48,538 nucleotides of DNA from positions 1 through 48,538 of the forward strand of contig JBDTZW010000236.1 of NCBI GenBank assembly GCA_040004905.1, in the 5' to 3' direction. The notes under the pieces are model-generated. The model made no database searches. It was given only the letters and a program-made list of their open reading frames with translations, and was not told where the DNA came from. This DNA comes from Acidobacteriota bacterium (lineage in GTDB: Bacteria; Acidobacteriota; Blastocatellia; Pyrinomonadales; Pyrinomonadaceae). Positions 17,317 through 46,329 of this stretch are shown here, in pieces. Within the stretch, counting starts at the first letter, position 1; each line of letters begins with the position of its first letter. The translations under genes were made by a program, and so were the position numbers.

Positions 17317-17332
17317 AACTTTTTAATTTTAA

Positions 17333-17505: not shown

Positions 17506-17545
17506 CATTACTGCAACTCAATGTGTGGAATTCGGGATAATCACT

Positions 17546-19475: not shown

Positions 19476-19883
19476 ATGCCGGTCAAAGCAGTAGCTATCA
19501 CAGAATCGACTCCCAAGCCCTGCACGGGATTTACGCTTGAGGTCAAAGTAGTTCCAAAGAAAGATCTTAAGCTTCATGTCGTTGTCGACAAGACCTGTGT
19601 AAATAATCAACCCCGTTGGGGGCTGATTTTTGAACTCGATAAAAATGATGTGCAAATCGTGTTCGTATCCTATCAGCCAAAGCTCGATGATACTCAGGCC
19701 CAGGGCGGTATCCAAAAGATGCTTGCCGATAAGAAAATAACGAAGGAGCAGCAGGCGGTCGCAAAAAACGAGATCCTGCCGGCCACGGCCGCCATTGAGG
19801 GTGTTGAGAATCCGACGCCGGCCCAAAAGGCCGCGATCGAACAGGCATCCAGAAAGATGACCGTCCTTCACATCGGCGGTTGA
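19476..19883 (+). CDS. hypothetical 135-aa protein ending in ...MTVLHIGG (C-terminal Gly-Gly)
   Basis: ATG 19476 is preceded by GGAGGA (19466-19471). The track ORF starts at TTG 19449. The N-terminal half looks beta-rich and the middle helical. I recognise no family. Confidence 0.6.
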   Translation: MPVKAVAITESTPKPCTGFTLEVKVVPKKDLKLHVVVDKTCVNNQPRWGLIFELDKNDVQIVFVSYQPKLDDTQAQGGIQKMLADKKITKEQQAVAKNEILPATAAIEGVENPTPAQKAAIEQASRKMTVLHIGG

Positions 19884-19987
19884 TTGTCAGTCCGGAGACC
19901 GTGGAGTCTCGGGGCTTCACCTTGTGGCGATAGAGCGTATTGGCAAATAAGCCAATTGCTTTTCAATACTTTTTGGAGCTTAAGGTC

Positions 19988-23316: not shown

Positions 23317-23439
23317 ATTTCAGTCTTAAAACATATGACTTACGAACTTAGAGCTTTTAATGCCCAAAAAGGTTTAAATTTCTCGCAATCAAAGTTTAAA
23401 CTAGCTGTCATGATTTCGTTACGACGGAGGTAGTAATTG

Positions 23440-32740: not shown

Positions 32741-33226
32741 CTATATATCGAGACGTTTTACCGCCTCAACCAGCAATTTGTCAGCTGTCTGAGCGTAAAT
32801 CGTGGTTATGCTCATATCGGAGTGGGCAAAGAGGTTCTGTACTATAAGTGGGTTGGTGTTTCGCCGAATCAATTCGCTAGCAAAGTAACTTCGCAGATCG
32901 TGGAAATGATAGTTCTCCTCTCGGGTTCCATCTCTTTTGTTGATGCCGGCATTTCGAAGAGCTGTGTACCATCTCTTTCGAAAGTCTTTCACCGGGAATG
33001 GCAACTGTTCATCTTCAATCATCGCACGGAGTACCTTCGTTGCGGTGGCGTTAAGAGGAACAAGATGTGGCGGTCTTCCCTTCGAACCGATTACCAAAAT
33101 CTGTTCATTGTCGAAGTCGTTCACATCCTCAGTAATGGCCATTGGCTGATCCTTTAGCGTTCGAATTGTGATTTGAGATCGACCAGCTTTCCAATTCGCT
33201 TGACGATAGTCCCTGGACTTGGGCAT
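32741..33226 (-). pseudogene. truncated tyrosine recombinase (catalytic domain only)
   Basis: Contains the HxxR box (FHDLRSYFAS), the His...Tyr tail (AHSDMSITTIYAQ) and a possible box-I Arg (KAGRSQITIRTL). It lacks any N-terminal core-binding domain. The frame overlaps the upstream gene's 3' end by 73 nt. An alternative ATG at 33142 follows AAGGA. Confidence 0.65.
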
Positions 33227-34311
33227 TTGCCCGTAATGCTTGCACGTCTTAGCTCACGATAAGTTGGCATACGGCGATACTGTTTCGATAACTTTCGAAT
33301 TGCCGACAAGATCTCGTCATTGGTATATCTACGCGAGTTTGGCGCTACCTCGGAATAGCCTGCGGCCTTGTATGCACTCGGCAAGCTACCAAACATGCTC
33401 GCAAATGTGGTCGCAGCAGCGCATTCGCCGAGCTTGCTTGCGGAATTGATATCCCGGTCTGTCGGCTTTTTGCCAAGCTTGTTACATAACGCCTTAAGCT
33501 GAGTGATTAATTCTTCCTTCGTATATTTCTGCCAGTATGCTGTCCGCTCCTTCGCTTTACGATAAGCCGTCTGTGTTCTGGCGGCACGACGTGCTTTCGA
33601 TAGCGTCCCGAACTCCTTCAGAAACATCTTCACCGATGGCCCTTTACCGGCGTCATACAACCTCCAAATATCCGTTTGCTGTATTGGGCGGTCGAGTGTA
33701 GCGTCCAACATGCCAAGGATCGCAATCATCTCCTCGCGAGTGTAAATCTTTTTGGCGGCACCGGCCACCTCGATTGCGGCTGGAACCGACCCGAACGCTC
33801 GTACAAAATGATAAGGAGGTGAAACCTCTTTTCTCCGTCTCGCCTCATCAACGTCTTCGTCGAAAAGAGTTCGGCCCAATTTCAGCTGGAGTTGGCGAAG
33901 TTGATTCAGAAGTTTTTCGCGATCAGATGCGTCAAATTCCTGCTTATACCTGGGCTTCAGTTTTGCCTGCTTCAAAGCCGTAAGAAAGCTGCCGAATACC
34001 GCATAGTAAATATATAAAGGATGAACGCGCTCCTGTTCTCTTAGAGCCGGCCAATCGTTTGTTATCGGTGTCCTTCCCAATTCGCTCGCGACCTCTTTCA
34101 ATTCCGCGATTAAATATTGCTTCGACGGAAGGTCTGCCGTTCCCCGCCGCTTGTTTTTACCGGTTCTAATCTCAGGGTTCTCAAGGAACCAACGGCGGCA
34201 TGAACGGCAATAGAACCTTCGCTTCCGATGTTTCCCAAATCCGGCCATGCAAGTTGCACCGCTACCGCAGTGGTAACAAATAAACCCCGATGGAATCGCT
34301 GGTCGCCCCAT
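33154..34311 (-). CDS. Zn-ribbon protein with five homing-endonuclease-associated-type (HEAR/HNH_repeat-like) repeats
   Basis: N-terminal CxxC...CxxC (CYHCGSGATC...YCRSCRRWF). Five ~55-aa repeats start at LIAELKEVASELGRTP, LLNQLRQLQLKLGRTL, MIAILGMLDATLDRPI, LITQLKALCNKLGKKP and ILSAIRKLSKQYRRMP. Most of the repeats end in a FGS/FGT motif followed by an ...A.. segment. No nuclease domain is visible. The start overlaps the radical-SAM stop (TAATG). Confidence 0.65.
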   Translation of the reverse strand: MGRPAIPSGFICYHCGSGATCMAGFGKHRKRRFYCRSCRRWFLENPEIRTGKNKRRGTADLPSKQYLIAELKEVASELGRTPITNDWPALREQERVHPLYIYYAVFGSFLTALKQAKLKPRYKQEFDASDREKLLNQLRQLQLKLGRTLFDEDVDEARRRKEVSPPYHFVRAFGSVPAAIEVAGAAKKIYTREEMIAILGMLDATLDRPIQQTDIWRLYDAGKGPSVKMFLKEFGTLSKARRAARTQTAYRKAKERTAYWQKYTKEELITQLKALCNKLGKKPTDRDINSASKLGECAAATTFASMFGSLPSAYKAAGYSEVAPNSRRYTNDEILSAIRKLSKQYRRMPTYRELRRASITGKCPSPGTIVKRIGKLVDLKSQFER

Positions 34312-34991
34312 TATTCAATAGTAACATCGGCGATAAATCTTTGATTTCGCGAACCGCGATACTCTCCCGCGCTTTCTTGCTGGCTGACCACGAATGGTCC
34401 GTCGATCAGCAAATCGATGTGGCAAAGAATATAGTCGATGCTTGGCACTCGTTTCTGTATCAGCTGCTCGATCGTATATCCGGAATATACAGTAATATGA
34501 ATACCCTGGTTCTTCAGCCTAGATACAATCTCGGCAACGGATTCGGGTTGGTCGAATGGCTCTCCGCCAAGAATGGTTACACCGTCATGCTCGATGGAGT
34601 GTGAAACGACCGCATCTACAATCGAAGCGATAGAAACCAGATTCCCATTACCTCGCTCGTGAGTCTGAGGTACGAAGCAGTGCCTACAGCGAATTGAACA
34701 TCCAGAGGCTTGGATTACGCTGCGGCGGCCCGGGCCGTCAACAACCGAGTTGTGATAAAGCCGGTAGAGCCAGATCGAAAAAGAATCTGAATCGAGCTTA
34801 TCCTCAGATGACCGAAAAGACTGCAAAACGGGCAAGTATCTCTTATTGTCAGCCGGCTTGGCACAATTCACGTCAGTGCGCCGTCCGAGATCACTCGCAA
34901 TATCATTTGATGCCTGTGCCGAAACCTGGGAGATCTCGACAGTCACGCGTCCCGCGTCCGGCTCCAGTACGAAGACTGCTTCTTTATTCAT
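34311..34991 (-). CDS. NrdG-like radical-SAM activating enzyme with ~80-aa N-terminal extension
   Basis: VVDGPGRRSVIQASGCSIRCRHCFVPQTH (CxxxCxxC preceded by DGPG), TILGGEPF, and size and order typical of anaerobic-RNR/PFL activases. ATG 34991 overlaps the DUF2997 gene by 8 nt. Confidence 0.8.
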   Translation of the reverse strand: MNKEAVFVLEPDAGRVTVEISQVSAQASNDIASDLGRRTDVNCAKPADNKRYLPVLQSFRSSEDKLDSDSFSIWLYRLYHNSVVDGPGRRSVIQASGCSIRCRHCFVPQTHERGNGNLVSIASIVDAVVSHSIEHDGVTILGGEPFDQPESVAEIVSRLKNQGIHITVYSGYTIEQLIQKRVPSIDYILCHIDLLIDGPFVVSQQESAGEYRGSRNQRFIADVTIE

Positions 34992-35178
34992 TGGAGCCTA
35001 CCCGCCTCTGCACCGCTGGCTTGACCTGATACTCGGCCGTTTTCCGATCCGTCATCGGTGCCCCGAGTACCTCCTTCAACTGGCGAGCGGTTTTCTCGCA
35101 TGCCGGTCCCTGAATACCGTTGATCTGTGTTTCGCATTTTCCGGTTTCGGTATAGATCGTAAATTCGATTTCGGGCAT
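34984..35178 (-). CDS. DUF2997-family small protein
   Basis: MPEIEFTIYTETGKCETQINGIQGPACEKTARQLKEVLG...TAEY matches the DUF2997 pattern as I remember it. It occupies the expected position after DUF1257. Confidence 0.75.
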   Translation of the reverse strand: MPEIEFTIYTETGKCETQINGIQGPACEKTARQLKEVLGAPMTDRKTAEYQVKPAVQRRVGSNE

Positions 35179-35195
35179 GGTTGGACTCCTGATTG

Positions 35196-35594
35196 CTAGA
35201 ATTTAACTCGAATTTTTACGGTCTTTCCGATCCGCTCTTTGACCAGAGTTCCGCCGAGTTTCTTTGCCATTTTGCGAGCGACGGCTTCGTGATAGGAATT
35301 CTGGATCCGGACAACGAAGTCCTTCCCAAGACGGTAATCAAGATCCATGTCATCGACCACCGCAACGTAACCCGAAGAGGTTTTCTGAAAGCCGATGTCT
35401 GCCAGAAGATGATGGTTCCTAACATCTTTTCTCCGAATAATGATGTCGGCGGTTCGAGCATTTCGCTTATCCCAGCCGTCTAGCGGGAGCTCCTTTCCTT
35501 CAGTCACCGCCGTAAAACCCATTTCGGATAACGCCTCAAGTAATAACTTACCGTTCGCAAACGACTGTGATTCGAATGTCATATATTTGGACAT
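35196..35594 (-). CDS. DUF1257 (Ycf35-like) protein
   Basis: 132 aa. MSKYMTFESQ...LLLEALSEMGF...ADIIIRRKD...DIGFQKTSSGYVAVVDDMD...IQNSYHEAVARKMAKKLG follows the DUF1257 layout. Confidence 0.75.
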   Translation of the reverse strand: MSKYMTFESQSFANGKLLLEALSEMGFTAVTEGKELPLDGWDKRNARTADIIIRRKDVRNHHLLADIGFQKTSSGYVAVVDDMDLDYRLGKDFVVRIQNSYHEAVARKMAKKLGGTLVKERIGKTVKIRVKF

Positions 35595-35615
35595 GACTCA
35601 ATTTGGCCCCCTACC

Positions 35616-37235
35616 TTAGAATTCATAGATCCGATCACCTCGGGTTCCTGCTATACCTGAGCTGTCGATCTTGCCGGCAGCTCCTTTGATATTGTTCCGC
35701 GCCCATTTGCGAATCTCTTCGATCTTTTCGCTCATCATCTGGGCGGTTGGCGAGATGCTCTCGACGGCCTTGAGAATGTCGCGCGTTTCAGCTGAACGGT
35801 CCCCGTCGATGAATGCCTCAAGGACTCCATCTTTTACCGCTCCTTCAATCTCCGCTCCGGAAAAGTCCTTGCTTTTCTCAACTAACTTATCGAGATCGAA
35901 ACGGTCAGGCTCAAGCTGTCTTTTCTTTAGGTGAACTTTGAAGATCTCCGTTCGATCTTCATGATCGGGCAAATCAACAAAATGAATATAAGAAAATCGG
36001 CCGATGCGGAACTGCTCCGACTCGAGCTCTCGAACATCGTTGGCGGTAGCGAAGACGAGAACATCGCGATTGTCCTGCATCCAGTTGAGAAGATAAGAGA
36101 TCGTTCGGGCCGTTTCGCCGCCGTCGGTTTTGTTCGAGGATTTCATTCCAGAGACAGCTTTCTCAAATTCACTGATCCCGAGAATTCCCTTGATCGTTCC
36201 GGCGATCGACAAAGCTCGCTTTATGGACATTGCTGACGATCCGATCACGCCCCCGCCCTCGCCCATGATCGATCCGAAGTCGAGGTCAAGAAGCGCACGA
36301 TTTGTGATCGAAGACGCGACCCGCTTGCAGAGGTCCTTCCCGCAGCCAGGCAATCCAACAAGGAGAATCCCCTTGCATGGCTCGACGTGCCGAGCCTTAG
36401 CTTGCGGGCTGAACGTATATGCAGCACGTTCCAGGATCGCTCTTAAGGACTTATATCCGCCGAGATTGCTCGCTGGCTCGGGATGTACGTATGTCAGGGA
36501 ACCGCTGCCGCGAATGACATTCTTCTTCTCTTCGAGAATCACACTGATCGACTCGCGATTCAGGCCGTTACAGCTTATTACTGCCTTCGCTATGACATTG
36601 CTGATCTCGCCGGCAGTTAAACCGAGAAGTGACTGCAGCAACGCTGTCTGCGTTTCCTTTTCAAGGTCGATGGCAAGGCCGCTCGATCGCAGGTTCTCAA
36701 GCTGGAGCTCGATCGATTCTTCGATCTCGGTTTCCTTAGGAAGATCCAGCTCTATCTGCGTGATCTCCTTTTCGAGAGTCTTGAGATCTGGAAAGTTTGG
36801 TCCGACAAAAAGGACTGTCGCTTTTGTCGATTTCAGCTTCCAAGCTATTTCGCGAAGCCTGCGAACCAGCAACGGATCTTCCTGACCATACGGAGAGATA
36901 TAAGGGGCATAATCGCAGAGGAGAAAGATTCCGGTCTTTTGATCCCCGATGAACCCAAGTACACTTTCTGGATCTTCCGTATCGCCGACCGTGGTCGGAT
37001 TCTGCTCTACACCTTCCTTGGGATCAACGATCTTTTGCAGGCCCGTGGGACGACTCCAGAAATATAAAGGTTTCTCTTTGTGTCGATCCTGGAAGACGAG
37101 ATCGATCAAAGCCTCGCGAACTCTGTCCTCTTCGTAGGTGTTGATTGCGATAAGCGGATATCGGGCCCTTATACGGATATCCAGTTCGTGCAGAAACTTC
37201 TGGATGCTATCGGCATCCGTTTGCTGGTCGGTCAT
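35616..37235 (-). CDS. Ycf46-like AAA+ ATPase with non-canonical Walker A/B
   Basis: N-terminal IRARYPLIAINTYEEDRV (Ycf46-type). AAA core GILLVGLPGCGKD, ILGISEFEK, VLVFATAN, FRIGRFSYIHFVDLP, and lid FSGAEIEGAV. Confidence 0.9.
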   Translation of the reverse strand: MTDQQTDADSIQKFLHELDIRIRARYPLIAINTYEEDRVREALIDLVFQDRHKEKPLYFWSRPTGLQKIVDPKEGVEQNPTTVGDTEDPESVLGFIGDQKTGIFLLCDYAPYISPYGQEDPLLVRRLREIAWKLKSTKATVLFVGPNFPDLKTLEKEITQIELDLPKETEIEESIELQLENLRSSGLAIDLEKETQTALLQSLLGLTAGEISNVIAKAVISCNGLNRESISVILEEKKNVIRGSGSLTYVHPEPASNLGGYKSLRAILERAAYTFSPQAKARHVEPCKGILLVGLPGCGKDLCKRVASSITNRALLDLDFGSIMGEGGGVIGSSAMSIKRALSIAGTIKGILGISEFEKAVSGMKSSNKTDGGETARTISYLLNWMQDNRDVLVFATANDVRELESEQFRIGRFSYIHFVDLPDHEDRTEIFKVHLKKRQLEPDRFDLDKLVEKSKDFSGAEIEGAVKDGVLEAFIDGDRSAETRDILKAVESISPTAQMMSEKIEEIRKWARNNIKGAAGKIDSSGIAGTRGDRIYEF

Positions 37236-37249
37236 AACTTTATTGGCAA

Positions 37250-37669
37250 TCAGGAAACAGAGTGGACAGCCGTGCGTCCGTTCTGGGCGCGATAGCCGTT
37301 TGCTCCGTTGGTCTTTGGGGGATCAGTGGTCATCCGCTCGACTTTCTGCATTTCCTCGCGAGACGCTAATCCGTTCTCGATCGAGAAGCCGAGGATCGCG
37401 AGGCCGCGACCTACGGCACTCGTCTCACAGTTCTCGACAAATGAGGTCGTATTAACGTAACCCTGGTTACGTATCTCGAAGGCGTGGCCCGTTCCGCTCG
37501 GCTCGGCGTCGTCCGGCTGGCGGAAGACATTCGCTTTCATACATACGAAGCCGGTTTCCTCATTCAGACGCACGATCTCGGTGACAATACGGCCTTGCGG
37601 ATACTTTATGTAAAACTCCGCAATACGGGAATGAACGGGATTGTATTTGCTTAGATCGAAGCTCGCCAT
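37250..37669 (-). CDS. small phage-type protein, possibly a Rad52/Sak-like single-strand annealing core
   Basis: VHSRIAEFYIKYPQGRIVTEI...GTGHAFE...VENCETSAVGRGLAILGF resembles the Rad52-family pattern (...A.TDA.KRAL..FG). This is a low-confidence family call, but the ORF is well packed in the operon. Confidence 0.55.
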   Translation of the reverse strand: MASFDLSKYNPVHSRIAEFYIKYPQGRIVTEIVRLNEETGFVCMKANVFRQPDDAEPSGTGHAFEIRNQGYVNTTSFVENCETSAVGRGLAILGFSIENGLASREEMQKVERMTTDPPKTNGANGYRAQNGRTAVHSVS

Positions 37670-37700
37670 TTATAAACCTCGTTGGACAAATCTTAGTGAG

Positions 37701-39170
37701 TCAGAGTTCAAGCGCTGATAAACGATCTTCGTCAAGAAGTTTCCTGGACTGGACCGAAGTCAGTCGCAGAAGATCGTCGAGAGCGGTTCGCATTTCTTCC
37801 GGAGAGCGCTGCTTCACTTCGCGCCCCGCTGCGCCCTCAAGTTTGCTCAACACGTCTTCGAGCGATGTGTCGCCCGTAAAGTTCATTAGCTGATACCATT
37901 CGCACATCTGCCGTGCTCGTTTTGCGAGAGAACCGGGCACAAACTTCGCGTCCTTCAACCGCTGAGACATCTCCGTTGCCGCTTCGAAGATCTTTGAAGC
38001 GATCTGAGCAAAACCCTCCTTTACCGGGGATACGGCCTCTTCCGCCTCGCGTCTTGCGGCCTCGATTTTCATGTTGCGGATGCGTTCCTTGACCTCTCGC
38101 TCGCGGCGCGTTTCGTCTGTTGCTTCGTTAATCTTCAACTGTTCGATTTGCCGTTTTGTGTCCGCCTCAAGTTCCAGAGCGGTTCTCTCGGCGTTCAGTT
38201 TTGTCGTTTCGATTGCAAGTGTTCGCGCCAAGTTTCTCTCAGCGATCATCTCGGAGCCTAGAACGATCACCTTCGGCTTCATCGTTATCACGAGCCCGTC
38301 GCTTAGCATCTCTTTAGTTGGCACCATCCCGAGGGCTTGTGCGGTCACCGCCTCGACGAACTCATTTCGATTGAAAGGTTCGTCGACCGTTGCCAGCAGC
38401 CTGTTTGCCGAGTCCTCGGCAAGCTCGCGAAAACTGTCGGTCAGAATTTCAATAATATCGTCGTATTTTTCGAGAACTTCGGCCTTGGCCCGCGAAAGCG
38501 TTTCGCATGCGCGAAAGTACGCCTGCTCGAATTGCTCGAATGCCGTCCAGGGGATCCATTTATACTCGCTGGTCCCCCAGACGGTCTCACATAAAGTGAA
38601 GCGGAAACCGTACTTATTGAGAGCGTTATGAGCTTGAGCCGCTCCGCGCATCAGTTTGTTTCGAGATACATCGGGCAGCAGTCCTGCTCTTGGTGGGCTA
38701 ACGCGAACCGCGGCTTCTTCTGGAAGTTTTACTCCAAGTGTTCTCCATTCCAACTGCCGGATCAGACTGCCGAAACCACGACAGTCGATATTCATGAAGA
38801 TACCCTCGCTCTCCAGCGTCGAAAGGTCGAAGGGCAATGACTCGACCTCGTTTGCACCGATACCGAGTTCTGCGGCGGCCCGTTCTTTTCTTGCATCAAG
38901 ACGCCTAAAAACATCATGAGCCAAGCTCGATTGCGAGATCGAGTCAGCGGAAGGCGTGATTTCAAAAGAATCGATTGCCTCGGCAGGTTTCGATTCTTCG
39001 GGCGCGTTCCGCCTGTCATCAGACATCGGCAACGCTGTTTCTCTATTTGAGTTGGCGAGGCCATTCCGGCCGAAAATATTCTGTAAGACCGATGAGGCCA
39101 GCGAATTCGGTTTAGTGACCGATACCGGCGTACCGGCACGTTCTGCTAACTGTTGAGTTTCCATCTTCAC
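37701..39170 (-). CDS. hypothetical 489-aa protein with C-terminal coiled-coil region (possibly DUF3150-like)
   Basis: The long ORF fits the operon spacing. The central region (FMNIDCRGFG...KYGFRFTLCETVWG...FEQAYF) vaguely recalls DUF3150 proteins of ICE/plasmids. The C-terminal half is Glu/Arg/Lys-rich and helical. Confidence 0.7.
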   Translation of the reverse strand: MKMETQQLAERAGTPVSVTKPNSLASSVLQNIFGRNGLANSNRETALPMSDDRRNAPEESKPAEAIDSFEITPSADSISQSSLAHDVFRRLDARKERAAAELGIGANEVESLPFDLSTLESEGIFMNIDCRGFGSLIRQLEWRTLGVKLPEEAAVRVSPPRAGLLPDVSRNKLMRGAAQAHNALNKYGFRFTLCETVWGTSEYKWIPWTAFEQFEQAYFRACETLSRAKAEVLEKYDDIIEILTDSFRELAEDSANRLLATVDEPFNRNEFVEAVTAQALGMVPTKEMLSDGLVITMKPKVIVLGSEMIAERNLARTLAIETTKLNAERTALELEADTKRQIEQLKINEATDETRREREVKERIRNMKIEAARREAEEAVSPVKEGFAQIASKIFEAATEMSQRLKDAKFVPGSLAKRARQMCEWYQLMNFTGDTSLEDVLSKLEGAAGREVKQRSPEEMRTALDDLLRLTSVQSRKLLDEDRLSALEL

Positions 39171-39234
39171 ACTCTTCTGTCATCCGCCTGTTTTCTGGGT
39201 CATGAGCTAATTTCCATGCTTTGCGTTAAGAGGC

Positions 39235-39534
39235 TTAGCATATGCATGTGCTAAATGACATCGACTCAAAATACAGGTCTCTCTCAACTTTTAGACCACT
39301 TATTTCAACTTCTTCCAGCTCCCGCAATGTAAAATAACCCCACTCGGATTCGAAACCGATAACGTGGCCAAAGAATAGGAACTCGTCGGCCTGGGCTTCG
39401 CCTTTGGTTACAAACCAGGTCCATCCGGATGCCGGAAAGAAGAACTTCGCGTATACGGTAGGGTCCGAAGAACTTTCTTGTTCGCCCAATTGCGGTAGAG
39501 CACTCCGAAGAGCGTCGTCGAGAAGGATTGACAT
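39235..39534 (-). CDS. DUF2958-domain protein
   Basis: DPTVYAKFFFPASGWTWFVTKGE...FLFFGHVIGFESEWGYFTLRELEEV...KVERDLYFE is a close match to the DUF2958 consensus found on ICEs and plasmids. Confidence 0.85.
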   Translation of the reverse strand: MSILLDDALRSALPQLGEQESSSDPTVYAKFFFPASGWTWFVTKGEAQADEFLFFGHVIGFESEWGYFTLRELEEVEISGLKVERDLYFESMSFSTCIC

Positions 39535-39540
39535 ATCTGG

Positions 39541-40404
39541 CTATCTTTTCTTTGAGACTGCGGCCGCGATCTGATCAGGGGTGCAGTAAAGGGAGCGGCC
39601 CGTGCCACTATCGAGATCGAAATATGTGGCGAATCTCTTGAGCGATCTTGTGAGGAACATCTCGCAAAGCATCTCAGCCAATTCAATTGCAACCCGCTGA
39701 TTTATGTTGAGACTTTGTTCTCCAAGACGAATCCGGTCAGGGCAGGAAAGTCTTTCGAGGTCTTCTGATCTGGCCGGCTTTTCTGGCGCAAGAAGATCGG
39801 GATGCACAAGCGATGGGGCAGGGAGAGAGCGGCAGATGCTTGTCGCCGTGAAATGCTGATCCGGCTTTATCCGCTTCGTATTCGAGCCGAGAAGAACCTG
39901 TCCCGATGATCGGCCATTGCCGCCATCTATCCACCATAAATCGGGAGCATCCGAAGAACCGTATCTCCGATACTTATCGATCGCAAGATGAATATCGCGC
40001 CGCGCGAAATGGTTGTCGACGCAGCCGACGATAATCGTCATCGAACGATAGTCGCTGGTCGAAGCCCTAAGATGGTTCTCGCCGTCGAATAACTCATTTG
40101 CGTAATGGCACTCCAATCCCCATGCAAGGGTTATTCTCTTTGCAAGAGACTGTGCCTTGAAACTACCTATCTCCGCCGCACAGAAGTTGCTTCTCGGTAT
40201 ATTGCCACTCTCTACCATATCCGGATCGACTATCAACATCTCGACCGGCTTACTTTTCTGTTTCAATTCAAACATCAGCCTTGCGATCGCGGGGACCACA
40301 AACGATCCTGTTCCGCCCGCTCCGACGACGATGAAGCGAAGGCTGCTGTACTCTCTAGGCATCACAACGGCAGCCTGTGAGAAACTTAGATCGATCTGCT
40401 TCAC
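39541..40404 (-). CDS. ThiF/E1-like adenylyltransferase (PRTRC ThiF-type)
   Basis: Rossmann motif FIVVGAGGTGSF, then LIVDPDMVESGNIPRSNF and IIVGCVDNHFARR. GTG 40404 overlaps the JAB stop (GTGA). An alternative ATG lies at 40365. Confidence 0.9.
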   Translation of the reverse strand: MKQIDLSFSQAAVVMPREYSSLRFIVVGAGGTGSFVVPAIARLMFELKQKSKPVEMLIVDPDMVESGNIPRSNFCAAEIGSFKAQSLAKRITLAWGLECHYANELFDGENHLRASTSDYRSMTIIVGCVDNHFARRDIHLAIDKYRRYGSSDAPDLWWIDGGNGRSSGQVLLGSNTKRIKPDQHFTATSICRSLPAPSLVHPDLLAPEKPARSEDLERLSCPDRIRLGEQSLNINQRVAIELAEMLCEMFLTRSLKRFATYFDLDSGTGRSLYCTPDQIAAAVSKKR

Positions 40405-41057
40405 AACAACATCTCCACAAGCGCGTCTATCTCGTCGAGGTCGATGATCTCTTCCGGCATTTCACCGACCCAAAGCGCCGGGATCGGAACGAGGTGGTCG
40501 TAAACACCGCAACGGAACCTTATCTTCGGCTTGTCGTGAACATCCATCAGGATGCCGAAGATCCTGAACTTGCCTAGTTCATCCGCGTCGTCCGCTCTGC
40601 TGAAATTCAACGCCCCGGGCGGGTGCGTATGCAGTTCGATGCAGCAGTCTGCGTATTCCCGCAATGCATCGTCGGCGATGGTCGATACCACGCTGTGTTC
40701 GCGGCCGGCCGCTATCCATTGCCAGGCGCCACGTTCCTTGTCCCAGTAGATGAGGTAAATCTCTTCCCTAAAATTCGAGGATGTGTGCGCTCGCCGCGCG
40801 TGCAGGAATATATCAAGCCACAAAGACGCTGGTATTTTTGGTTTTGTCCACGTGATACCGATCGAGGCATTCGGGAGGCCCCATACCTTTTGCATACTGA
40901 GCGGCAAAGATACGGAAAACTCCCGGCGTTTCGCACGAACGAATAAACCATTTCCGGTGAGAAGGTATTCATAGAGAGCCGCTTCTATCGGGTCATTCTC
41001 ACTCACGGCGATGCGGTGCCCGACCAGTTTTGGCAGGGCGATAAAATTTGGAGTCAT
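40401..41057 (-). CDS. JAB/MPN (JAMM) metallopeptidase (PRTRC protein A-like)
   Basis: Complete JAMM signature ELHTHPPGALNFSRADDAD (HxH-x7-S-xx-D). Confidence 0.9.
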   Translation of the reverse strand: MTPNFIALPKLVGHRIAVSENDPIEAALYEYLLTGNGLFVRAKRREFSVSLPLSMQKVWGLPNASIGITWTKPKIPASLWLDIFLHARRAHTSSNFREEIYLIYWDKERGAWQWIAAGREHSVVSTIADDALREYADCCIELHTHPPGALNFSRADDADELGKFRIFGILMDVHDKPKIRFRCGVYDHLVPIPALWVGEMPEEIIDLDEIDALVEMLL

Positions 41058-41072
41058 ATAATGGAATTGGGT

Positions 41073-41762
41073 TTAGAAGCGGCTGTCGTATCGGTTTCGC
41101 TCGACGATTGATTCCCATGCGTCCTCGACAGTGCTCGACGACATGATCAATTGGGTCGCCGGGAACTTCTTCACCTTGTCCGAAGCCAATTTTGCGAGCA
41201 AAGTGCGAACGTCACCTTCCGTCTGGCATCTTCCCGTCGAATGATCGCCATTGAATGGAGCGTCGAAGATGAGCTTCCAGACATCCTGCAGCATCGAAGG
41301 ATGCGTCTCCGGGACCTCGTTCTGCCCGAAGCAGATCTTTCCCGAGCCGATATTCGGTAACGGCGCGACGGCCAGTCGAGTATTCCGGGTGACCTTCGAA
41401 CTCGATGCGGCCCACAGGTAGTAGTCCTTCCCTTTCCCGAGAAGGATCAACGTCGGGAGAGGCAAGATTAAGGTCTCTACACGATCGCCCGGAAAGACAA
41501 TTGCTATAGTTCGCGGGGCCGCCGGCAGATATGAAAGGATCGCGTTGCCGTCCGTCGCTTCGCGATACCGCAAGACCCGTCGATCTATCCAACCCGTGTC
41601 CGTTTGCAGATCGCGAAACGCCCGCGTCACCTGAGTACTCGATAAAGCCTTTAAGGCGTGCCGGTTCTCCCCGAATGTCTCGAACAGATACTGTCCGGGC
41701 AGAAAATAGAGTGCCGCGGCAGCATCCGGCGGTACAGTATGATTCCTCATCGATTTATTCAT
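41073..41762 (-). CDS. E2/UBC-like protein (PRTRC protein B / Prok-E2_B-like)
   Basis: APLPNIGSGKICFGQNEVP...WKLIFDAPFNGDH parallels the ApYwN...vC.Gs..iP...W...FF.S.FtH core of PRTRC-B proteins as I remember them. It sits directly upstream of the JAB and ThiF genes, as in PRTRC. Confidence 0.75.
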   Translation of the reverse strand: MNKSMRNHTVPPDAAAALYFLPGQYLFETFGENRHALKALSSTQVTRAFRDLQTDTGWIDRRVLRYREATDGNAILSYLPAAPRTIAIVFPGDRVETLILPLPTLILLGKGKDYYLWAASSSKVTRNTRLAVAPLPNIGSGKICFGQNEVPETHPSMLQDVWKLIFDAPFNGDHSTGRCQTEGDVRTLLAKLASDKVKKFPATQLIMSSSTVEDAWESIVERNRYDSRF

Positions 41763-42600
41763 CCGAAGATCGAACTGGACCGGAGTCCGAACCGGACAGC
41801 CCCAGATCGGGATGCTCTCCCGTGTTCCAGAAGTCGATAAGTGCCCGCAGCATCTTTTTCGGTTCTGCCTCTATCATTTCATCGAGCTTATTCAATCTTT
41901 CTAAGATCTCATTTGCCGCCTTGTATTCCGCCGTGAGCACTTCGATCGTTTCGCGGTCCCAGGAGTACCAGTCGGCGGTTTGGCAATAGTTCGAATCGAG
42001 CCACGGATTGCCGGTTGAGTGATCCACCAACCGCAAAAGTTCTCCGATAAGTCCGATAAGAGAGCCGCTCTGCGCCGCCCAGACATTCTGATGGGGACTG
42101 GAATGGATCGAGGGGAAATCCTTTCTCGACAGCTTGTACTGATGGTCGAGGAAATCCCAGGCGTCGTCCGGAAAGTAGAAGATCAATGCAGCGGCGTAGC
42201 TCACCTTCAGATTGTCGAAATATATATCTTCACAGCATAGATCGATATTTAACGGCGGGATGGCGAACTGTTCGAACTCGTTCTCCGGGTCGTCGTAGGC
42301 GAATTCAAGCAGCGGGAAACACTTTTCATTCACCAGATTGAAAAGCTCGTTGATCCGCTCGCTGTATTTCCCGTAGTAGCCGCGCCTGTAAAGACTCGCT
42401 TTGGAGCGCTCCCATTCGTTCGGAAATATCTCCCGATACAATCCATATTTCTGCTGCTCGGAGAGGACACGGGCGACGAGATCGTATGCGGTAATTGCAT
42501 TGTGACTCCGAGCCTTGAAGCTCAGGTACTCAAGAGATTTTGAAAGCCGTTCGGCAAACCCAAGTTCCTCCGACAGTCGCTCTTTAGGCATCGAGTACAT
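41755..42600 (-). CDS. hypothetical helical 281-aa protein (position of PRTRC protein F)
   Basis: Aromatic-rich ORF predicted to be helical. It overlaps the E2-like start by 8 nt. I recognise no motif. The PRTRC-F equivalence is positional only. Confidence 0.7.
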   Translation of the reverse strand: MYSMPKERLSEELGFAERLSKSLEYLSFKARSHNAITAYDLVARVLSEQQKYGLYREIFPNEWERSKASLYRRGYYGKYSERINELFNLVNEKCFPLLEFAYDDPENEFEQFAIPPLNIDLCCEDIYFDNLKVSYAAALIFYFPDDAWDFLDHQYKLSRKDFPSIHSSPHQNVWAAQSGSLIGLIGELLRLVDHSTGNPWLDSNYCQTADWYSWDRETIEVLTAEYKAANEILERLNKLDEMIEAEPKKMLRALIDFWNTGEHPDLGLSGSDSGPVRSSDE

Positions 42601-42612
42601 ATGCCGTTTACC

Positions 42613-42882
42613 CTAAAACCCTGTTGGAACGTGAATCGACGGACGTGCAGGCGATCTCTCGAAAGCCGCGATCTGACGTCGTATCGTTTCGATCTCGCTT
42701 CTGCCTTCGTCCAGGATCTCTTCTGCGCGGTTTATTTCTTCAGCGCTCAGAAGGTCGGCGGCATTTCTTAACATGAACTCTTCGGCCAACAGGATCGTCG
42801 GATTCACCCGTTCCGTTTCTGCGATCAGGATATCGAACGGAGACTCGTTCCCGTTCACAGAACCGCTGCTTAGAATTTCCAT
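42613..42882 (-). CDS. hypothetical 89-aa protein (first gene of the operon; track ORF extends to 42981)
   Basis: ATG 42882 (MEILSSGS...) follows GGAGG with 9-nt spacing. The 33 codons upstream (42883-42981) look like read-in from the decayed Rhs cassette. The protein looks helical, not beta-grasp. Confidence 0.5.
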   Translation of the reverse strand: MEILSSGSVNGNESPFDILIAETERVNPTILLAEEFMLRNAADLLSAEEINRAEEILDEGRSEIETIRRQIAAFERSPARPSIHVPTGF

Positions 42883-42984
42883 TTTTCCCAACCTCCGCAT
42901 TCTGGCAGCCGCTCTTTTTTGTTTTACAAAAACAGATTTGACAGGAATTTTGCTCGCGATGTGGGATCTAATCAGATTCATTAT

Positions 42985-43612
42985 GAGACGCCCGAGCCAG
43001 CTGAAAAATCCTAGTCCGCTTGGGTCAAGGTGGTTTATCGATCGTTTCCGCAGAAAGCGTAAAGGTTCAGCGTCTGCGGACTCGCGAATGAAACAGCATT
43101 CATGCCCGCCGGATCGACTTGAGTAAATCTGCCTTGCTTCGAGTCGTATGTCCGGTTGACAGCGTAGTCGAGTTCAGTTCGCGAGCTTCGTTCGTAGCTG
43201 GTGAACCGTTTTGGATTTGTGGTTAGGGTCGATTCGGCGTTGAGTGCAGTGCCGAATGGCAGGTGGGCCTGTTCGTAGCTAGTTCCGGCTGTCTGATTGG
43301 TAACCAGCCTGGTTCCCAAACGGTCGGGGCGGTTGTATTCGGTCGTCTAGCCACCTGAGCCGTTTGGCGTGATCGTCGAGAGAAGACTGTCGCCTAAGTA
43401 AATGCACGTCTTTGACCATGAAAGAGTGCCGTTTCCGTTTGTCTCGGAGTATTCAACCGCGTCGCCATACCAGGTCGTCAGCCACGAAACGACGTCGGTC
43501 AAAGCGATCCGCTCATTGCCGACACCGAACTGCTGACTTTCGATCAGTGTACCATCATTCGGTTCATTGCCCTGTTTGATATTCACGCGACTATTCGCCG
43601 CATCGCATCCAA
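42985..43612 (-). pseudogene. orphan Rhs C-terminal cassette 3 (core-end only, decayed)
   Basis: Homologous to the main rhs gene from ...DAAN.RVNIK... to ...CGND(P)INHLDPSGLGFF. In-frame TAG at 43347-43349 (GAG in the main copy). 1-nt deletion after 43040 (tatcgatcg versus tatcggatc in both other copies). Track ORFs 43347..43586 and 43035..43319 are its pieces. Confidence 0.8.
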
Positions 43613-43640
43613 AGCGCAGCCGCTACGTAATTCAGAATCT

Positions 43641-44075
43641 TTACTTTGGAAAACCCCGTTGAACGACGGTAAAATCTTTCTTACTAATATGATAAACTAC
43701 GTCAATTCCATTCTCGGTCTCCCCACCAACATAAACCTGATTCGGTTCGCGTTTGACCAAAAGCGTTCCGACCAGCAGATCAGTGTTGGAAGCTTTATCC
43801 TCATGTATCTCTAATTTATAGTTGGCAAGATTTTTCTTACCCTCGGGAATCTCTTTATCATTTTTGAATGCGTAAAGTATCGAATTAACTACTTGAAGTT
43901 GTTCCGAGCTAAGCGCAATTTCGAGCTGAGAACCCTTTAGGGTTTGTATGTCTCTTACTTGCTCTCCGTTTGTTGGAGCGATCAGTTCATCATTTTGAAG
44001 CCTTTTGCCGGAATCTAAAGATCCGCACGAGGCGAAAAGCACAGTCATTAAAAAATAGGGAATTATTTTTGTCAT
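43641..44075 (-). CDS. exported/lipoprotein immunity candidate for orphan cassette 2
   Basis: ATG 44075 overlaps the toxin stop (ATGA). MTKIIPYFLMTVLFASCGS is a signal peptide with a lipobox-like LFASC. Confidence 0.65.
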   Translation of the reverse strand: MTKIIPYFLMTVLFASCGSLDSGKRLQNDELIAPTNGEQVRDIQTLKGSQLEIALSSEQLQVVNSILYAFKNDKEIPEGKKNLANYKLEIHEDKASNTDLLVGTLLVKREPNQVYVGGETENGIDVVYHISKKDFTVVQRGFPK

Positions 44076-45447
44076 TTTATTTTTGTCCTCCCAACTGTCG
44101 CAACTTGCCAACCTGCCGGGTTTCTACTGTACCGCATAAGGTTTCCAGAAGGAGTTGCAAGCCAGCTTGGAAGATTACCGCCCTCGGCTGAAGCTACATC
44201 GCCCGGAATTGGACTCCCAGGAAGTCCCGAAAACTGTTCATTCCAGTCAGTCCCCCCTATGACGCTACTTTCTTCCCAATGAGCGTGGGTATGGTATAAA
44301 CCGGCCAACTGACTGTCTTTCGGGCACGTATTAGGAATTCCACCACCGGCCGGCCCCAAAACTACAGGAACCGTAGAAATAAATACACCGGGCTTTAGTT
44401 TGCAAATAAATCCTGCAATTTCTCTATTTATCCTAATGGATCGTGCATTAATCTCCTGGAGTATCGCTATGGCAGCCTGCTGAGCGGTTCGATACCTCTT
44501 TCTTGGCTTGCCTTGAACAAGACTATTCCCAACGGCACTTCCGGCTCTGACACCGCCAAGGAAAACTTGCCACCATGATATATGTGAGGCAGATTCTCCA
44601 GTGCTGGCAAGGTTCACAATGATGGAATTAGCTATATTTGACGAGGCTCTGATCGCCGCTATTCCTGCGCCAATCCCCGTTCCAATTGCAATCCAACCCA
44701 AAATTTTTGCAGCCGTAGTATAACCAAGGGCACTCATAACCGACGATCCGGCTGAGGCAGTAGCGCTGACAGCAGCCAATATGCCTGCGATGGTTGCAGG
44801 CGCTGCTACTATTGTTAGAATAGCCACGACCACAGCAATTATTGCTACAATCCATTTGAATAGTTTCTTCAGGAAACTGAAAAAGCCCAGCCCGCTTGGG
44901 TCTAAATGATTTATCGGATCATTCGCACAGTAAACATACAGATTGAGCGTTTGCGGAGCGGCAAGGCTTGTCGCTTCCATTCCAGCCGGATCTACCTGGG
45001 TGAAGCGACCTTGTTTACTGTCATAGGTCCGGTTGACGGCGTAGTCGAGTTCGGTTCGCGCACTTCTCTCATAAGAGGTGAAGCGTTTTGGATTGGTGGT
45101 CAGCGTCGATTCGGTGTTGAGGGCAGTGCCGAAAGGCAGGTGTGCCTGTTCGGAGCTTGTGCCGGTCGCCTAATTGGTTACGAGCTTTGTTCCCAAACGG
45201 TCTGGGTGATTGTATTCTGTCACCTCGACACCCGCTCCGTCCGGCGCGATCGTGGAAAGCAGGCTGTCACCGAGATAGGTACAGGTCTTTGACCATGCCA
45301 GGATTCCGCTGGTGCCGCTTTCGATATATTCCATCGAGTCGCTGTACCATGTCGTTTGATTCGCAACCGTATCAGTCAAGGCGATCCGCTCATTCCCGAC
45401 ACCGAAGGTCTGACTTTGAAGAAGAGAACTGTCGCTGGCCTTTTTGA
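44072..45447 (-). pseudogene. orphan Rhs C-terminal cassette 2: core-end + TM-rich linker + DUF4329-like toxin, interrupted by one in-frame TAG
   Basis: A single frame from ~45447 (LVNIKKASDSS...). TAG at 45170-45172 (CAG in the main copy). It continues ...RFTQVDPAGMEATS...NDPINHLDPSGLGFF, then a Gly/Ala-rich hydrophobic stretch, then YRTAQQAAIAILQEINARSI...GLYHTHAHW...FSGLP...ATPSGNLMRY (DUF4329-like). The intact distal ORF is 44072..44980. Confidence 0.8.
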
Positions 45448-45699
45448 TGTTTACAAGGCTCTTCCCATGAAACTAGTACTTCCCGTATTCCTTCTAATCA
45501 AGATCGTTTCGTTTTCTCAAACCCTTTATGATTTGGCAAAAGACCAAATCCAACACCTAAATATCAATCCAAAGGTCGATCGGTGCGCGAAAGACGGCAA
45601 TGGTTCTGACAAGGCGCTGAATCTTGCAAGGAACCGAATCGGCCTTCCCAAGGACCCTTTCGAATTGATCAGTAACGACTATCGTTTTTTTATGTTTCT

Positions 45700-46293
45700 T
45701 TATTTCTGAACATTTTTTTTAGTTTCTTCTAGAAGGGCTTTTCGCTTTTCCCAATATACTGCATCAACTAATTTTAGAAGTTGAACTAACGAATCTGGGT
45801 AGACTCCCGAGCTTTCAAGATGAACGTGGCTGTCGTTTTCTTCAATTATTATTTTCTTCATAGCATTATCGGATAAATAATTGACGGTGACACGAATTTT
45901 CGAATCCAAGATGCGCCTAGTCGGAGTGTACATTGTCTTTGGTTCATCAAAACGCATCTTGTCAAAGATCGTTAAAAAAGCGTCAAATTGCTCTCCGGTT
46001 ATTGCCGAACGTTTGAGTTCCGTTCTAAACGGAACGCCCGCGAGATCTGGTCCATATTGAGGAAAAAAATCAAACTCAATCGCCGCGTCGCTATAAAGTC
46101 GAAGCGTCAAAGTTTTTCCGGGCGGATACACCGGCCCCTCAGACTCACTTACGACTTCCAATAGAAGCCTTTCGTCTCCATTGGTAGCGTTTGTGTATCT
46201 TGAAGACGAGCAGCTCGCTGAAAAGGCGAGAGAAGCAAAAATAAAAACAATCAAAAGAGAACTCACAATATATTTATAGCAATACATACTCAT
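45700..46293 (-). CDS. exported immunity candidate for the main Rhs toxin
   Basis: Starts 36 nt after the rhs stop. The N-terminal hydrophobic leader IVSSLLIVFIFASLAFSASCSS suggests a signal peptide, possibly a lipoprotein. Confidence 0.6.
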   Translation of the reverse strand: MSMYCYKYIVSSLLIVFIFASLAFSASCSSSRYTNATNGDERLLLEVVSESEGPVYPPGKTLTLRLYSDAAIEFDFFPQYGPDLAGVPFRTELKRSAITGEQFDAFLTIFDKMRFDEPKTMYTPTRRILDSKIRVTVNYLSDNAMKKIIIEENDSHVHLESSGVYPDSLVQLLKLVDAVYWEKRKALLEETKKNVQK

Positions 46294-46329
46294 TTTTCTT
46301 AGCTCCTACTTGCCAAAAAGGTCGTCCGG

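Follow-up and report, generated by a model that had tools for sequence, protein, structure and literature searches.

Two adjacent, separable gene modules, a ubiquitin-like conjugation set and an AAA+/radical-SAM set, in a probable tRNA-Lys element remnant of an Acidobacteriota genome

Does a tightly packed run of genes in an acidobacterial genome encode one molecular machine, or have two gene sets with different histories come to lie side by side? The question is raised by the window analyzed here (the whole stretch of 48,538 nucleotides [nt], contig JBDTZW010000236.1 of assembly GCA_040004905.1, from a member of the Pyrinomonadaceae), whose minus strand places the E1-like, E2-like, and JAB-type proteins of a ubiquitin-like conjugation set beside an AAA+ ATPase, DUF1257 and DUF2997 proteins, and a radical S-adenosylmethionine (SAM) enzyme. 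A first-pass annotation had read this run as one protein-tagging-and-remodeling system. We instead favor, at a probability of roughly 0.55, the reading that the run belongs to the truncated remnant of an element integrated at a tRNA-Lys gene and consists of two separable, adjacent modules that serve this element: module A, the conjugation set (g122 through E1), and module B, the AAA+ set (g489 through the radical-SAM gene). Although the conjugation set is of a known class, what appears to be new is both the AAA+/DUF1257/DUF2997/radical-SAM module as defined here and the stable association of the set with it.

The run and the two features that mark its integration site are as follows (coordinates in the window, strand, identity, and best profile matches).

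42613–42981, minus: g122, a small helical protein and the first surviving gene of module A; 89 amino acids (aa) from its probable start at 42882; no Pfam, NCBIfam, or PADLOC match
41755–42600, minus: g281, an uncharacterized protein preceding E2; no Pfam match, followed with its own hidden Markov model (HMM)
41073–41762, minus: E2-like protein of the Prok-E2_D type, with its cysteine in GSGKICFG; PF14460, 3e-22
40401–41057, minus: JAB/JAMM metallopeptidase with an extra N-terminal domain; Prok-JAB, 3.6e-4, below cutoff, motif intact
39541–40404, minus: E1-like protein with a single ThiF/MoeB-type domain, 287 aa; ThiF, 6.6e-11
39235–39534, minus: DUF2958 protein at the junction of the modules; PF11171, 1.4e-9
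37701–39170, minus: g489, a mostly helical protein with a long coiled coil, ending in ...DRLSALEL and assigned to module B; no family match
37250–37669, minus: Slr1353_N-like small protein (g139) in a variable slot; phrog_11717, 3.6e-34
35616–37235, minus: AAA+ ATPase with an N-terminal domain of ~270 aa (Ycf46-like), the core of module B; AAA, 6e-13, plus AAA_lid_3
35196–35594, minus: DUF1257 protein (Ycf35 family); PF06868, 1.5e-8
34984–35178, minus: DUF2997 small protein with one invariant cysteine; PF11211, 5.5e-7
34311–34991, minus: NrdG-like radical-SAM enzyme of the glycyl-radical-activase family, module B; Fer4_12, 2e-27, and Radical_SAM, 3e-10
33154–34311, minus: Zn-ribbon and HNH_repeat (HEAR) protein; three HNH_repeat matches, 7.5e-36, and a weak IS1-type Zn-ribbon match
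32741–33226, minus: C-terminal stub of a tyrosine integrase, 161 aa; Phage_integrase, 4.6e-16, profile positions 49 to 170 only
17333–17413, minus: tRNA-Lys, the likely original attachment site; ARAGORN

The run comprises 13 consecutive co-directional open reading frames (ORFs) at 33154 to 42981, or 14 if the integrase stub, which overlaps the 3′ end of the HEAR gene, is counted. The first-pass annotation had listed 14 between 42882 and 33142; the common strand and close packing hold, while the count and the lower end do not. Its start for the first ORF is the probable one, because homologues of g122 are 80 to 81 aa long and lie just upstream of g281 in relatives (an HMM of these homologues matches 47 ORFs across related loci, in addition to the ORF in the window). 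No gap exceeds 64 nt (12, 15, 6, 64, 31, 14, 21, and 17 nt), and the four overlaps fall exactly where they had been placed (41762/41755, GTGA at 40404/40401, 34991/34984, and TAATG at 34311). None of the 13 ORFs is disrupted, and the catalytic motifs are conserved. A scan of the run for promoters and terminators performed no better than it did on shuffled sequence, so that the proposal of a single transcription unit draws its support from the spacing. Neither Pfam nor NCBIfam contains a family matching g122, g281, g489, or g139. Distributions were followed with HMMs that were seeded by the window genes plus their first distant homologues and applied to about 70 related loci, which are cited below by L numbers where they need to be told apart.

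Judged by its profile matches and gene order, module A (g122–g281–E2–JAB–E1) is a group-6d (Prok-E2_D, PRTRC-like) ubiquitin-like conjugation set. The E2-like protein scores 79.6 bits against Prok-E2_D (cutoff, 25), and its cysteine is invariant in the homologue alignment, which bears out the assignment to E2 but moves the protein from the Prok-E2_B type, as first annotated, to Prok-E2_D; it has 411 homologues, mostly in Pyrinomonadaceae, and a sequence search of the PDB with it returned no match. The E1-like protein scores 42.2 bits against ThiF (PF00899; cutoff, 28.1), and three lineages have in common its GxGGxG, DxDxV..N..R, and GCVDN motifs plus one invariant cysteine (LSCP). The JAB protein falls short of the Prok-JAB cutoff (20.8 bits versus 25) and possesses an N-terminal region of ~90 aa, but its H-x-H-x7-S-x2-D motif is kept in comparison with a Chlorohelix homologue annotated as Mov34/MPN; it is the presumed enzyme for both processing the tail of a ubiquitin-like protein (Ubl) and deconjugation. 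Thus, the earlier E1 and JAMM peptidase assignments stand, and all motifs quoted for the triad (GAGGTGS, DPDMVESGNIPRSNF, HTH-x7-S-xx-D, and GSGKICFG) are present. The g281 HMM matches the ORF directly upstream of E2 in a Chroococcidiopsis plasmid (6.6e-12), in a Chlorohelix plasmid (3e-6), and in all acidobacterial loci.

The triad had also been identified as the PRTRC cassette (TIGR03734–03742). Its likeness to that type is real, in that the best NCBIfam models for the E1, E2, and JAB proteins are PRTRC_ThiF (130.9 bits, a near miss of its 144.75 cutoff), PRTRC_B (64.1 bits; cutoff, 131.45), and PRTRC_A (40.1 bits; cutoff, 101.8), respectively. However, all three scores lie below the curated cutoffs, and no gene of the run matches the NCBIfam models for PRTRC_C, D, E, F, or ParB, which makes the triad a divergent relative rather than a member.

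Group 6d was defined by Iyer, Burroughs, and Aravind in 2006 as a Ubl, a JAB protein with an N-terminal domain, an E1-like protein, an E2-like protein, and a fast-evolving alpha-helical protein (PMC1779556). The window agrees with this description in its mobile-element setting and in its E2 (above the Prok-E2_D cutoff, with the cysteine) and E1 (above the ThiF cutoff), and its relatives encode a Ubl candidate with a conserved glycine; the ~90-aa N-terminal region of its JAB protein and g281, which precedes E2, may correspond to the JAB N-terminal domain and the helical protein of that description. It differs in that the window is without a Ubl gene and that DUF2958, g489, and the AAA+ module come after the set; the text of the 2006 paper contains neither “AAA” nor “radical SAM,” so the combination of the two modules is not part of that description. 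Other classes now have names, with 6A/6B corresponding to the type II cyclic oligonucleotide-based antiphage signaling system (CBASS), CEHH/6C to Type II Bil, and 6E to Bub (10.1101/2023.09.26.559546; 10.1101/2024.11.21.623966). Module A shares with these the E1, E2, and JAB set (plus Ubl, in relatives). Unlike in Bil, its E2 belongs to another family (6d, not CEHH) and its E1 is a 287-aa single-domain protein (versus the IAD, AAD, and CYS domains of BilD), and no gene of the run matches the Bil-specific PADLOC models; unlike in type II CBASS (Cap2/Cap3), E1 and E2 are separate genes, with neither a CD-NTase nor a DUF6527 protein. The E1-E2 models of PADLOC match only the nucleotide-binding ThiF core, at ≤30 bits. 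We found no experimental work on group 6d in the literature searched.

A candidate for the modifier itself is present in relatives of the element. In 46 acidobacterial loci, the second gene upstream of g281 encodes a protein of ~100 aa with a low-complexity N terminus and an invariant C-terminal ...TIVK(R/K)AxxKG (e.g., ...TIVKRAQHKG), followed by a variable tail of 0 to 16 residues (none, A, VR, FR, YAA, YAGR, or GPDLHRILQSVLGKLR). Such a C terminus, KG and then a variable tail, typifies a Ubl precursor that would be trimmed to expose the glycine; the same pattern of a conserved glycine and a variable tail has been described for the group-6d Ubl (PMC1779556) and for Type II BilA (10.1101/2023.09.26.559546). 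The candidates match neither Prok_Ub nor, in a sequence search, any PDB entry. An HMM search of all ORFs of ≥30 aa detected no such gene in the window, and none was found in L001; hence, a self-contained tagging system is not present here. Two further copies, L002 and L003, have both g489 (14136–15580) and the Ubl candidate (8146–8381) split by frameshifts and are otherwise intact, and the near-identical L004 has both genes whole. Other copies of the element in the same genome could supply the Ubl in trans: in the KF762 metagenome-assembled genome (MAG), homologues of E2 and g489 reside on different contigs.

The wider context of the run is evident from its relatives. The E2, g489, and DUF1257 proteins each have hundreds of close homologues, nearly all in MAGs of Pyrinomonadaceae, Blastocatellia, and other Acidobacteriota. 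The closest relative, L102, encodes, in order, a Sno-type helicase, a sigma54-type AAA protein, a 406-aa protein, the Ubl candidate (117 aa), an 81-aa protein, g281, E2, JAB, and E1 and then DUF2958, g489, Slr1353_N, AAA+, DUF1257, DUF2997, radical-SAM, HNH_repeat (HEAR), and HTH_17 (Xis) proteins and a 363-aa integrase. After the integrase follow 50 nt (L102 18017–18066) that are 98% identical to positions 17382–17333 of the window, within its tRNA-Lys. These comparisons define what is apparently an element of roughly 25 kb that integrates at tRNA-Lys and is common in Blastocatellia and Pyrinomonadaceae; its neighbor genes include a methylase, the Sno-type helicase, ERF, Mom-like, and DUF2958 genes. 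(Among genes near individual copies, a TIR_2 and a ThsB_TIR gene lie beyond the integrase of L102, at 19974–21089, and genes for dUTPase/DCD, MazG, and a thymidylate-kinase/5-hmdU DNA kinase [HMUDK_hel], typical of thymidine hypermodification, lie beside the element in L098, at 17234–20625.)

The window retains only part of this element: g122 through the HEAR gene and the integrase stub remain, the helicase-to-Ubl half is missing, and Xis is lost. Where that half is missing, the cassette abuts fragments of an Rhs toxin locus; on its other side, a second integrase island, extending from 17525 (integrase, 17525–18733) to ~32.7 kb and presumably inserted later, separates it from tRNA-Lys. A repeat of the tRNA-Lys 3′ end was sought near the integrase stub and not found. 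The loss of the 5′ half, the truncated integrase, and the intervening island lead us to read the window as holding a truncated remnant of a tRNA-Lys integrative element within a composite island.

Module B is built around its AAA+ protein. Similarity extends over nearly its full length (residues ~10 to 525) in a family of 2,129 representatives at ≤1e-30; the protein matches phrog_8638, and its full-length relatives occur on 668 plasmid records (571 of them conjugative) and in a Tolypothrix chromosomal gene (L005). We take the family to be that of Ycf46, a provisional name. The AAA core belongs to the classical clade, nearest to the D2 domains of p97 and VAT and to PAN, and its arginine fingers are intact. 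The subfamily departs from the usual motifs in having GKD in place of GK[ST] in Walker A and I-S-E-F-E (ISEFE) in place of hhhhDE in Walker B, a pair that may resemble a swap of Mg2+ ligands, and its pore loop 1, G-V-I-G, is aliphatic, without an aromatic residue. With this loop and this Walker pair, the Cdc48-like unfoldase of the first-pass annotation is not established.

The genes accompanying the AAA+ gene recur with different regularity. Its most constant partner is DUF2997, which lies beside it in 10 of 11 mobile-element lineages, including IncC plasmids. DUF1257 adjoins it in Bacillus, Paenibacillus, and Pseudanabaena plasmids, in the Rhizobium phage RHph_I4, and in viral contigs; a PDB sequence search with DUF1257 produced no match. 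Across lineages, the DUF2997 alignment conserves only one cysteine and a PE[YF] motif, and the idea that this protein, which here ends in RRVGS, might be a miniature glycyl-radical carrier or a Ubl was rejected since its C-terminal residues vary across lineages. The radical-SAM gene, described at first as an orphan activase, is a regular member of module B: it is found beside this AAA+ gene in 7 of the 11 lineages (Paenibacillus, Rhodococcus, Bacillus, and Treponema plasmids and a phage among them), and its homologues lie ≤3 kb from the AAA+ gene both on nine plasmid records common to the two match lists and in L085, L088, L090, L091, L096, L100, and L101. The product carries CX3CX2C and GGEP, and its best models are NrdG (TIGR02491, 101.9 bits, 3e-29) and PFL activase (5e-19), the latter also being its best PDB match (3c8f). 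It is similar in size to NrdG and PflA but scores below the NrdG cutoff of 126.1, bears a 75-aa N-terminal extension, and has no NrdD- or PFL-type partner in the cassette.

Also assigned to module B is g489, with 336 homologues, including a 93% identical copy in L102 and a 417-aa homologue (E = 3e-30) in phage contig L096, where it accompanies the radical-SAM, AAA+, DUF1257, and DUF2997 genes. A kinship of g489 with the HhH-domain proteins of Bacillus and Rhodococcus modules was considered and rejected, there being no detectable similarity. The slot between g489 and AAA+ has two states: in 27 loci it is occupied by the Slr1353_N-like gene (phrog_11717, a function-unknown family, with homologues annotated as PF27148 Slr1353_N), and in 8 to 10 by a WGR-like gene (L001 14082–14516). 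The first-pass annotation, which was right that the AAA+, DUF1257, DUF2997, and radical-SAM genes are genuine neighbors, had also drawn the HEAR protein into the system; yet only in L102/L103, L145, L152, and L160/L161 is the radical-SAM gene followed by a HEAR gene, which is absent from L001 to L004, L097, and L098, and on this distribution it is evidently cargo of a sublineage, outside the conserved system.

Several module-B proteins end alike, in R-x-hydrophobic-[D/E]-hydrophobic. Examples include the AAA+ protein (GDRIYEF; window 35616–37235), g489 (DRLSALEL; 37701–39170), and the phage homologue of g489 (SRFSLIE; L096 5795–7048), and tails of the same type close the WGR-like protein (IDSLEF; L001 14082–14516) and the HhH proteins (GRMIDF and GRRLEF; L091 6545–7381 and L100 14163–14903). 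The pattern fits 16% of 131 AAA+ representatives versus 0.8% of 1,913 background ORFs, and the shared tail may be a docking peptide.

Relatives of the same families are known from cyanobacteria and plastids. In red-algal plastids, ycf35 (DUF1257) and ycf46 have been lost together (PMC5940233), and cyanobacteria possess a duf2997–ycf35–fed7 cluster (PMC4284462), a second case of a 4Fe-4S protein with DUF1257 and DUF2997 as its neighbors. The mobile and the cyanobacterial or plastid versions share AAA+ similarity over the full length, N domain included, and the adjacency of DUF1257 and DUF2997; the window genes are distinguished by their location on mobile elements beside an NrdG-like gene and g489 and by the GKD and SE residues of their Walker A and B motifs. 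There is no established function for the Ycf46, Ycf35, or DUF2997 families. In the literature searched, where subscription journals were only partly covered, neither module had been studied functionally on mobile elements, and there was no paper on DUF1257 or DUF2997 on mobile elements or on their link to an NrdG-like gene.

The two modules of the window carry different histories. Relative to L102, the proteins encoded by g122, g281, E2, JAB, and E1 are 53 to 77% identical, with saturated synonymous divergence (dS), whereas those from DUF2958 through HEAR are 88 to 98% identical, with a dS of 0.12 to 0.57 and a ratio of nonsynonymous to synonymous divergence (dN/dS) of 0.04 to 0.23. Such a step marks a recombination breakpoint between E1 and DUF2958, and DUF2958 (89% identical) shares the recent history of module B. 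Moreover, the contrast between AAA+ (96% identical; dN/dS, 0.04) and E1 (77%) gives no sign of coevolution between the modules. In relatives, the junction accommodates 0 to 4 kb of variable cargo on either side of DUF2958, including Mom-like, DUF6878, and DUF6915 genes, and in L133 and L160 genes on the opposite strand (e.g., Metallophos and Abi_C) intervene between the modules, which rules out a conserved single transcript. (The pair in L160, at 4139–6557, is inserted between DUF2958 and g489.)

Each module also occurs without the other. The Chlorohelix plasmid encodes g281–E2–Mov34/MPN (JAB)–ThiF with no module B nearby, and the Chroococcidiopsis plasmid g281–E2 with no adjacent module B; these were the two E2 neighborhoods inspected among 41 plasmid records, and on the two plasmids that carry both E2 and AAA+, these genes are 25 to 34 kb apart. 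Relatives of module A lie beside type IV secretion system (T4SS), primase, and helicase genes of conjugative plasmids. Conversely, most module-B loci have no E1 or E2 gene within 10 to 15 kb. Among those without E1/E2, Paenibacillus polymyxa pPPM1a has AAA+, DUF1257, DUF2997, and 4Fe-4S radical-SAM genes in the order of the window; a Rhodococcus plasmid has AAA+, an unassigned gene, DUF2997, an HhH protein, and radical SAM; Bacillus cereus has radical SAM, a weak DUF1257, an HhH protein, AAA+, and DUF2997; and Treponema pTRESU01 has radical SAM directly upstream of AAA+. On phage contig L096, tape-measure and lysin genes accompany radical SAM, the g489 homologue, AAA+, DUF1257, and DUF2997. 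The AAA+/DUF1257/DUF2997 trio occurs without radical SAM beside DnaB and PolI genes in phage RHph_I4, in two further viral contigs, and beside GrpE and Hsp70 genes on the Pseudanabaena plasmid, and the IncC plasmid backbone has AAA+ and DUF2997, with no DUF1257 detected. (Scans of viral contigs with single AAA+ and single E2 sequences gave no matches; an N-domain alignment of 7 sequences diverged too far to yield patterns, and one of 3 sequences gave three useful loci.)

The modules are nevertheless linked outside the window, contrary to the “never linked” case that the first-pass annotation had considered. The whole A-plus-B block is intact in L001 to L004, L097 to L099, L102, and L160 and is found in at least three contexts: the full element, a housekeeping neighborhood (L001), and the window. 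(L001 is CP070897.1, a 6.99-Mb record labeled “Leptolyngbya sp. 7M”; its cassette is acidobacterial, with proteins 68 to 90% identical, its neighbors are of the CarboxypepD_reg and outer-membrane beta-barrel type, and the organism label may be wrong.) The second instance is Bacillus licheniformis pBL141-2, a linear, phage-like replicon of 205 kb that carries recA, ssb, and thyX and encodes ThiF, a 225-aa Prok-E2_D protein (1.5e-8), and a weak Prok_Ub match (0.029) along with radical SAM, AAA+, DUF1257, and DUF2997. The window E1 and E2 are 38% and 33 to 34% identical, respectively, to the Chlorohelix and Chroococcidiopsis versions, which are without module B, but the Bacillus E1 is only 23% identical and the Bacillus E2 not alignable. 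The Bacillus proteins are thus unrelated to the lineage of the window, and the two juxtapositions represent independent events. The sister replicon of pBL141-2, Bacillus thuringiensis pd, has module B without E1 or E2. From these distributions, A and B appear to be separately mobile modules that are kept side by side in this element family.

What the modules do, we infer from their protein families and genomic settings. In module A, by analogy with the characterized Bil and CBASS pathways, the JAB protein would cut the Ubl precursor behind its KG and so remove the variable tail, E1 would adenylate the exposed glycine, and the Ubl would pass to the E2 cysteine and from there to a target lysine, forming an isopeptide bond that JAB could reverse. 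Since the 5′ half of the element, Ubl gene included, has been lost, module A is incomplete here unless the Ubl is supplied in trans. In module B, the probable task of a classical-clade AAA+ hexamer, in partnership with DUF1257 and DUF2997, is to remodel a target that is either a protein or a nucleoprotein; the NrdG-like enzyme is likely to use SAM to place a radical on a protein partner or to modify it in another way. For both modules, the most likely role is in establishment or replication of the element or in counter-defense, rather than in defense of the host. Such a role is favored by the presence of module B in phages near replication genes and in plasmid backbones, by the T4SS, primase, and helicase genes beside module A, by the methylase, ERF, and Mom-like neighbors, and by PADLOC matches that are generic only.

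Several observations weigh against the reading of two separable modules that serve the element. The modules are contiguous in the window, with gaps of ≤64 nt, and of 32 acidobacterial metagenomic loci whose flanks were long enough, 28 keep the order of A followed by B even though recombination and insertions have occurred between the modules (a distant E2 seeded the metagenome scan, yet nearly all the loci retrieved belong to the acidobacterial family, so that the linkage is not independently tested). On pBL141-2, both sets lie within 10 kb on one strand, with the Prok-E2_D and ThiF genes 1 to 7 kb from module B, a co-residence that could reflect selection. The E2, JAB, and E1 genes are intact in both the window and L001 despite the missing Ubl gene, which is unexpected if the Ubl is needed. 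Sampling and modeling add to these points: the distant lineages number only about 11 for module B and about 4 for module A; a scan of genome contigs with an unspecific Walker-A pattern returned generic AAA proteins (FtsH), with only the Tolypothrix locus being relevant; and the AlphaFold2 models of g489 and DUF1257 are poor (pLDDT of 56 and 43.5, respectively), with shallow input alignments (≥66% and ≥82% identical). Much of this agrees with the original proposal of one integrated system, in which E1, E2, and JAB would mark targets, AAA+ with DUF1257 and DUF2997 would unfold or extract them, and the radical-SAM enzyme would act as an accessory; the co-directional packing with its four overlaps, the retention of the block across E2 identities of 69 to 100% and three flanking contexts, the 28 metagenomic loci, the independent co-residence on pBL141-2, and an AAA core nearest to p97 D2, VAT, and PAN all speak for it. 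The ubiquitin-Cdc48/p97, SAMP-PAN, and Pup-Mpa pathways, too, pair a Ubl conjugation set with a classical-clade AAA+ protein. That resemblance, however, is one of gene content, and the window differs from those pathways in its nonaromatic pore loop, in having no protease or proteasome partner, and in the separability of its modules. The integrated system further conflicts with the module-B loci that have no E1/E2 (B. thuringiensis pd included), with the 6d sets of Chlorohelix and Chroococcidiopsis that have no adjacent module B, with the 25- to 34-kb spacing of E2 and AAA+ on two plasmids, with the breakpoint and insertion hot spot at the junction (AAA+ and E1 at 96% versus 77%), with the opposite-strand genes in L133 and L160, with the absence of a Ubl gene from the window and L001, and with the aliphatic pore loop and atypical Walker motifs. 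Of the original proposal, then, the conjugation set and its linkage to the AAA+ genes survive; the unity of the system we regard as doubtful. Cooperation between A and B is possible, with the odds against it, and is not required by the data.

Two other explanations concern the purpose and the state of the cassette. It could be an antiphage or anti-mobile-element defense carried as island cargo, with a logic like that of Bil, Bub, and type II CBASS: characterized bacterial E1/E2/JAB systems act in phage defense (10.1101/2023.09.26.559546; 10.1101/2024.11.21.623966), the composite island, with an Rhs locus beside the cassette, sits at a tRNA gene, L102 is flanked by TIR and ThsB-like genes, Abi_C and Metallophos genes lie inside L160, and IetA models give weak matches to the AAA core (72 bits in PADLOC and 61.5 bits in NCBIfam). 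But the curated IetA cutoff is 510, the alignment is confined to the AAA core, and an IetS protease gene is missing; PADLOC, which yielded no specific model match in the run, recognizes only generic ThiF, AAA, and radical-SAM cores; and the phage and conjugative-plasmid settings of both modules, together with methylase, Sno-type helicase, ERF, Mom-like, and DUF2958 neighbors that look like establishment or antirestriction cargo, argue for the element rather than the host. Of the two roles left open by the first-pass annotation, defense matched no known system and is quite improbable; counter-defense or establishment is the one favored by context. The cassette, or at least module A, might instead be a nonfunctional relic in this genome, as its truncation on both sides would suggest (Rhs fragments replace the helicase-to-Ubl part, the integrase is reduced to 161 aa, Xis is gone, and the second island cuts the element off from tRNA-Lys), and the frameshifted g489 and Ubl genes of L002 and L003 are in keeping with decay. 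Against a relic stand the 13 intact ORFs with conserved catalytic motifs, the dN/dS of 0.04 to 0.23 for DUF2958 through HEAR, the independent retention of E2 through radical SAM in L001, which has a housekeeping context and no Ubl gene, and the possible supply of Ubl in trans by other copies; a relic is, in our judgment, unlikely.

The reading of a truncated element remnant with two separable modules leaves room for two further, tentative proposals, which, taken together, we consider rather unlikely. Module B may be an undescribed and widespread machine of phages and plasmids, in which an NrdG-like enzyme and a Ycf46-type AAA+ protein would act on partners perhaps recognized through the shared C-terminal tail, and in the acidobacterial elements and the Bacillus plasmid, module B may have been recruited by 6d conjugation into a tag-and-remodel pathway for establishment or counter-defense. 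Group 6d appears to be the sole E1/E2/JAB operon class of 2006 without experimental work, and the about 70 acidobacterial loci, with their clear Ubl precursor, constitute a natural series that makes it testable. The AAA+/DUF1257/DUF2997 set, often with the NrdG-like gene, reaches both phages and the IncC backbone of clinical Enterobacteria, and a function for the mobile set would probably explain the chromosomal Ycf46 and Ycf35 as well. If the modules cooperate, they would represent a bacterial, mobile-element-borne analogue of ubiquitin-directed AAA+ remodeling; if they do not, the locus would still illustrate cleanly how cargo modules accumulate at a tRNA-Lys hot spot.

The remainder of the window is occupied by the genes surrounding the remnant. 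The Rhs locus spans 43035–48525 on the minus strand, and its ORF at 46330–48525 matches Rhs family proteins (PDB 7q97, 9e-11); within the locus, 43035–43319 is a core-end fragment and 44072–44980 an orphan tip cassette with DUF4329. The second island encodes a CBS protein, a patatin-like phospholipase (23437–24996), and proteins of 623, 751, and 1,181 aa that have no Pfam or PADLOC match, the largest of which displays an HxHxDH metallo-beta-lactamase-like motif. Upstream of this island, at 7505–16132 on the plus strand, lies an ORF of 2,875 aa.

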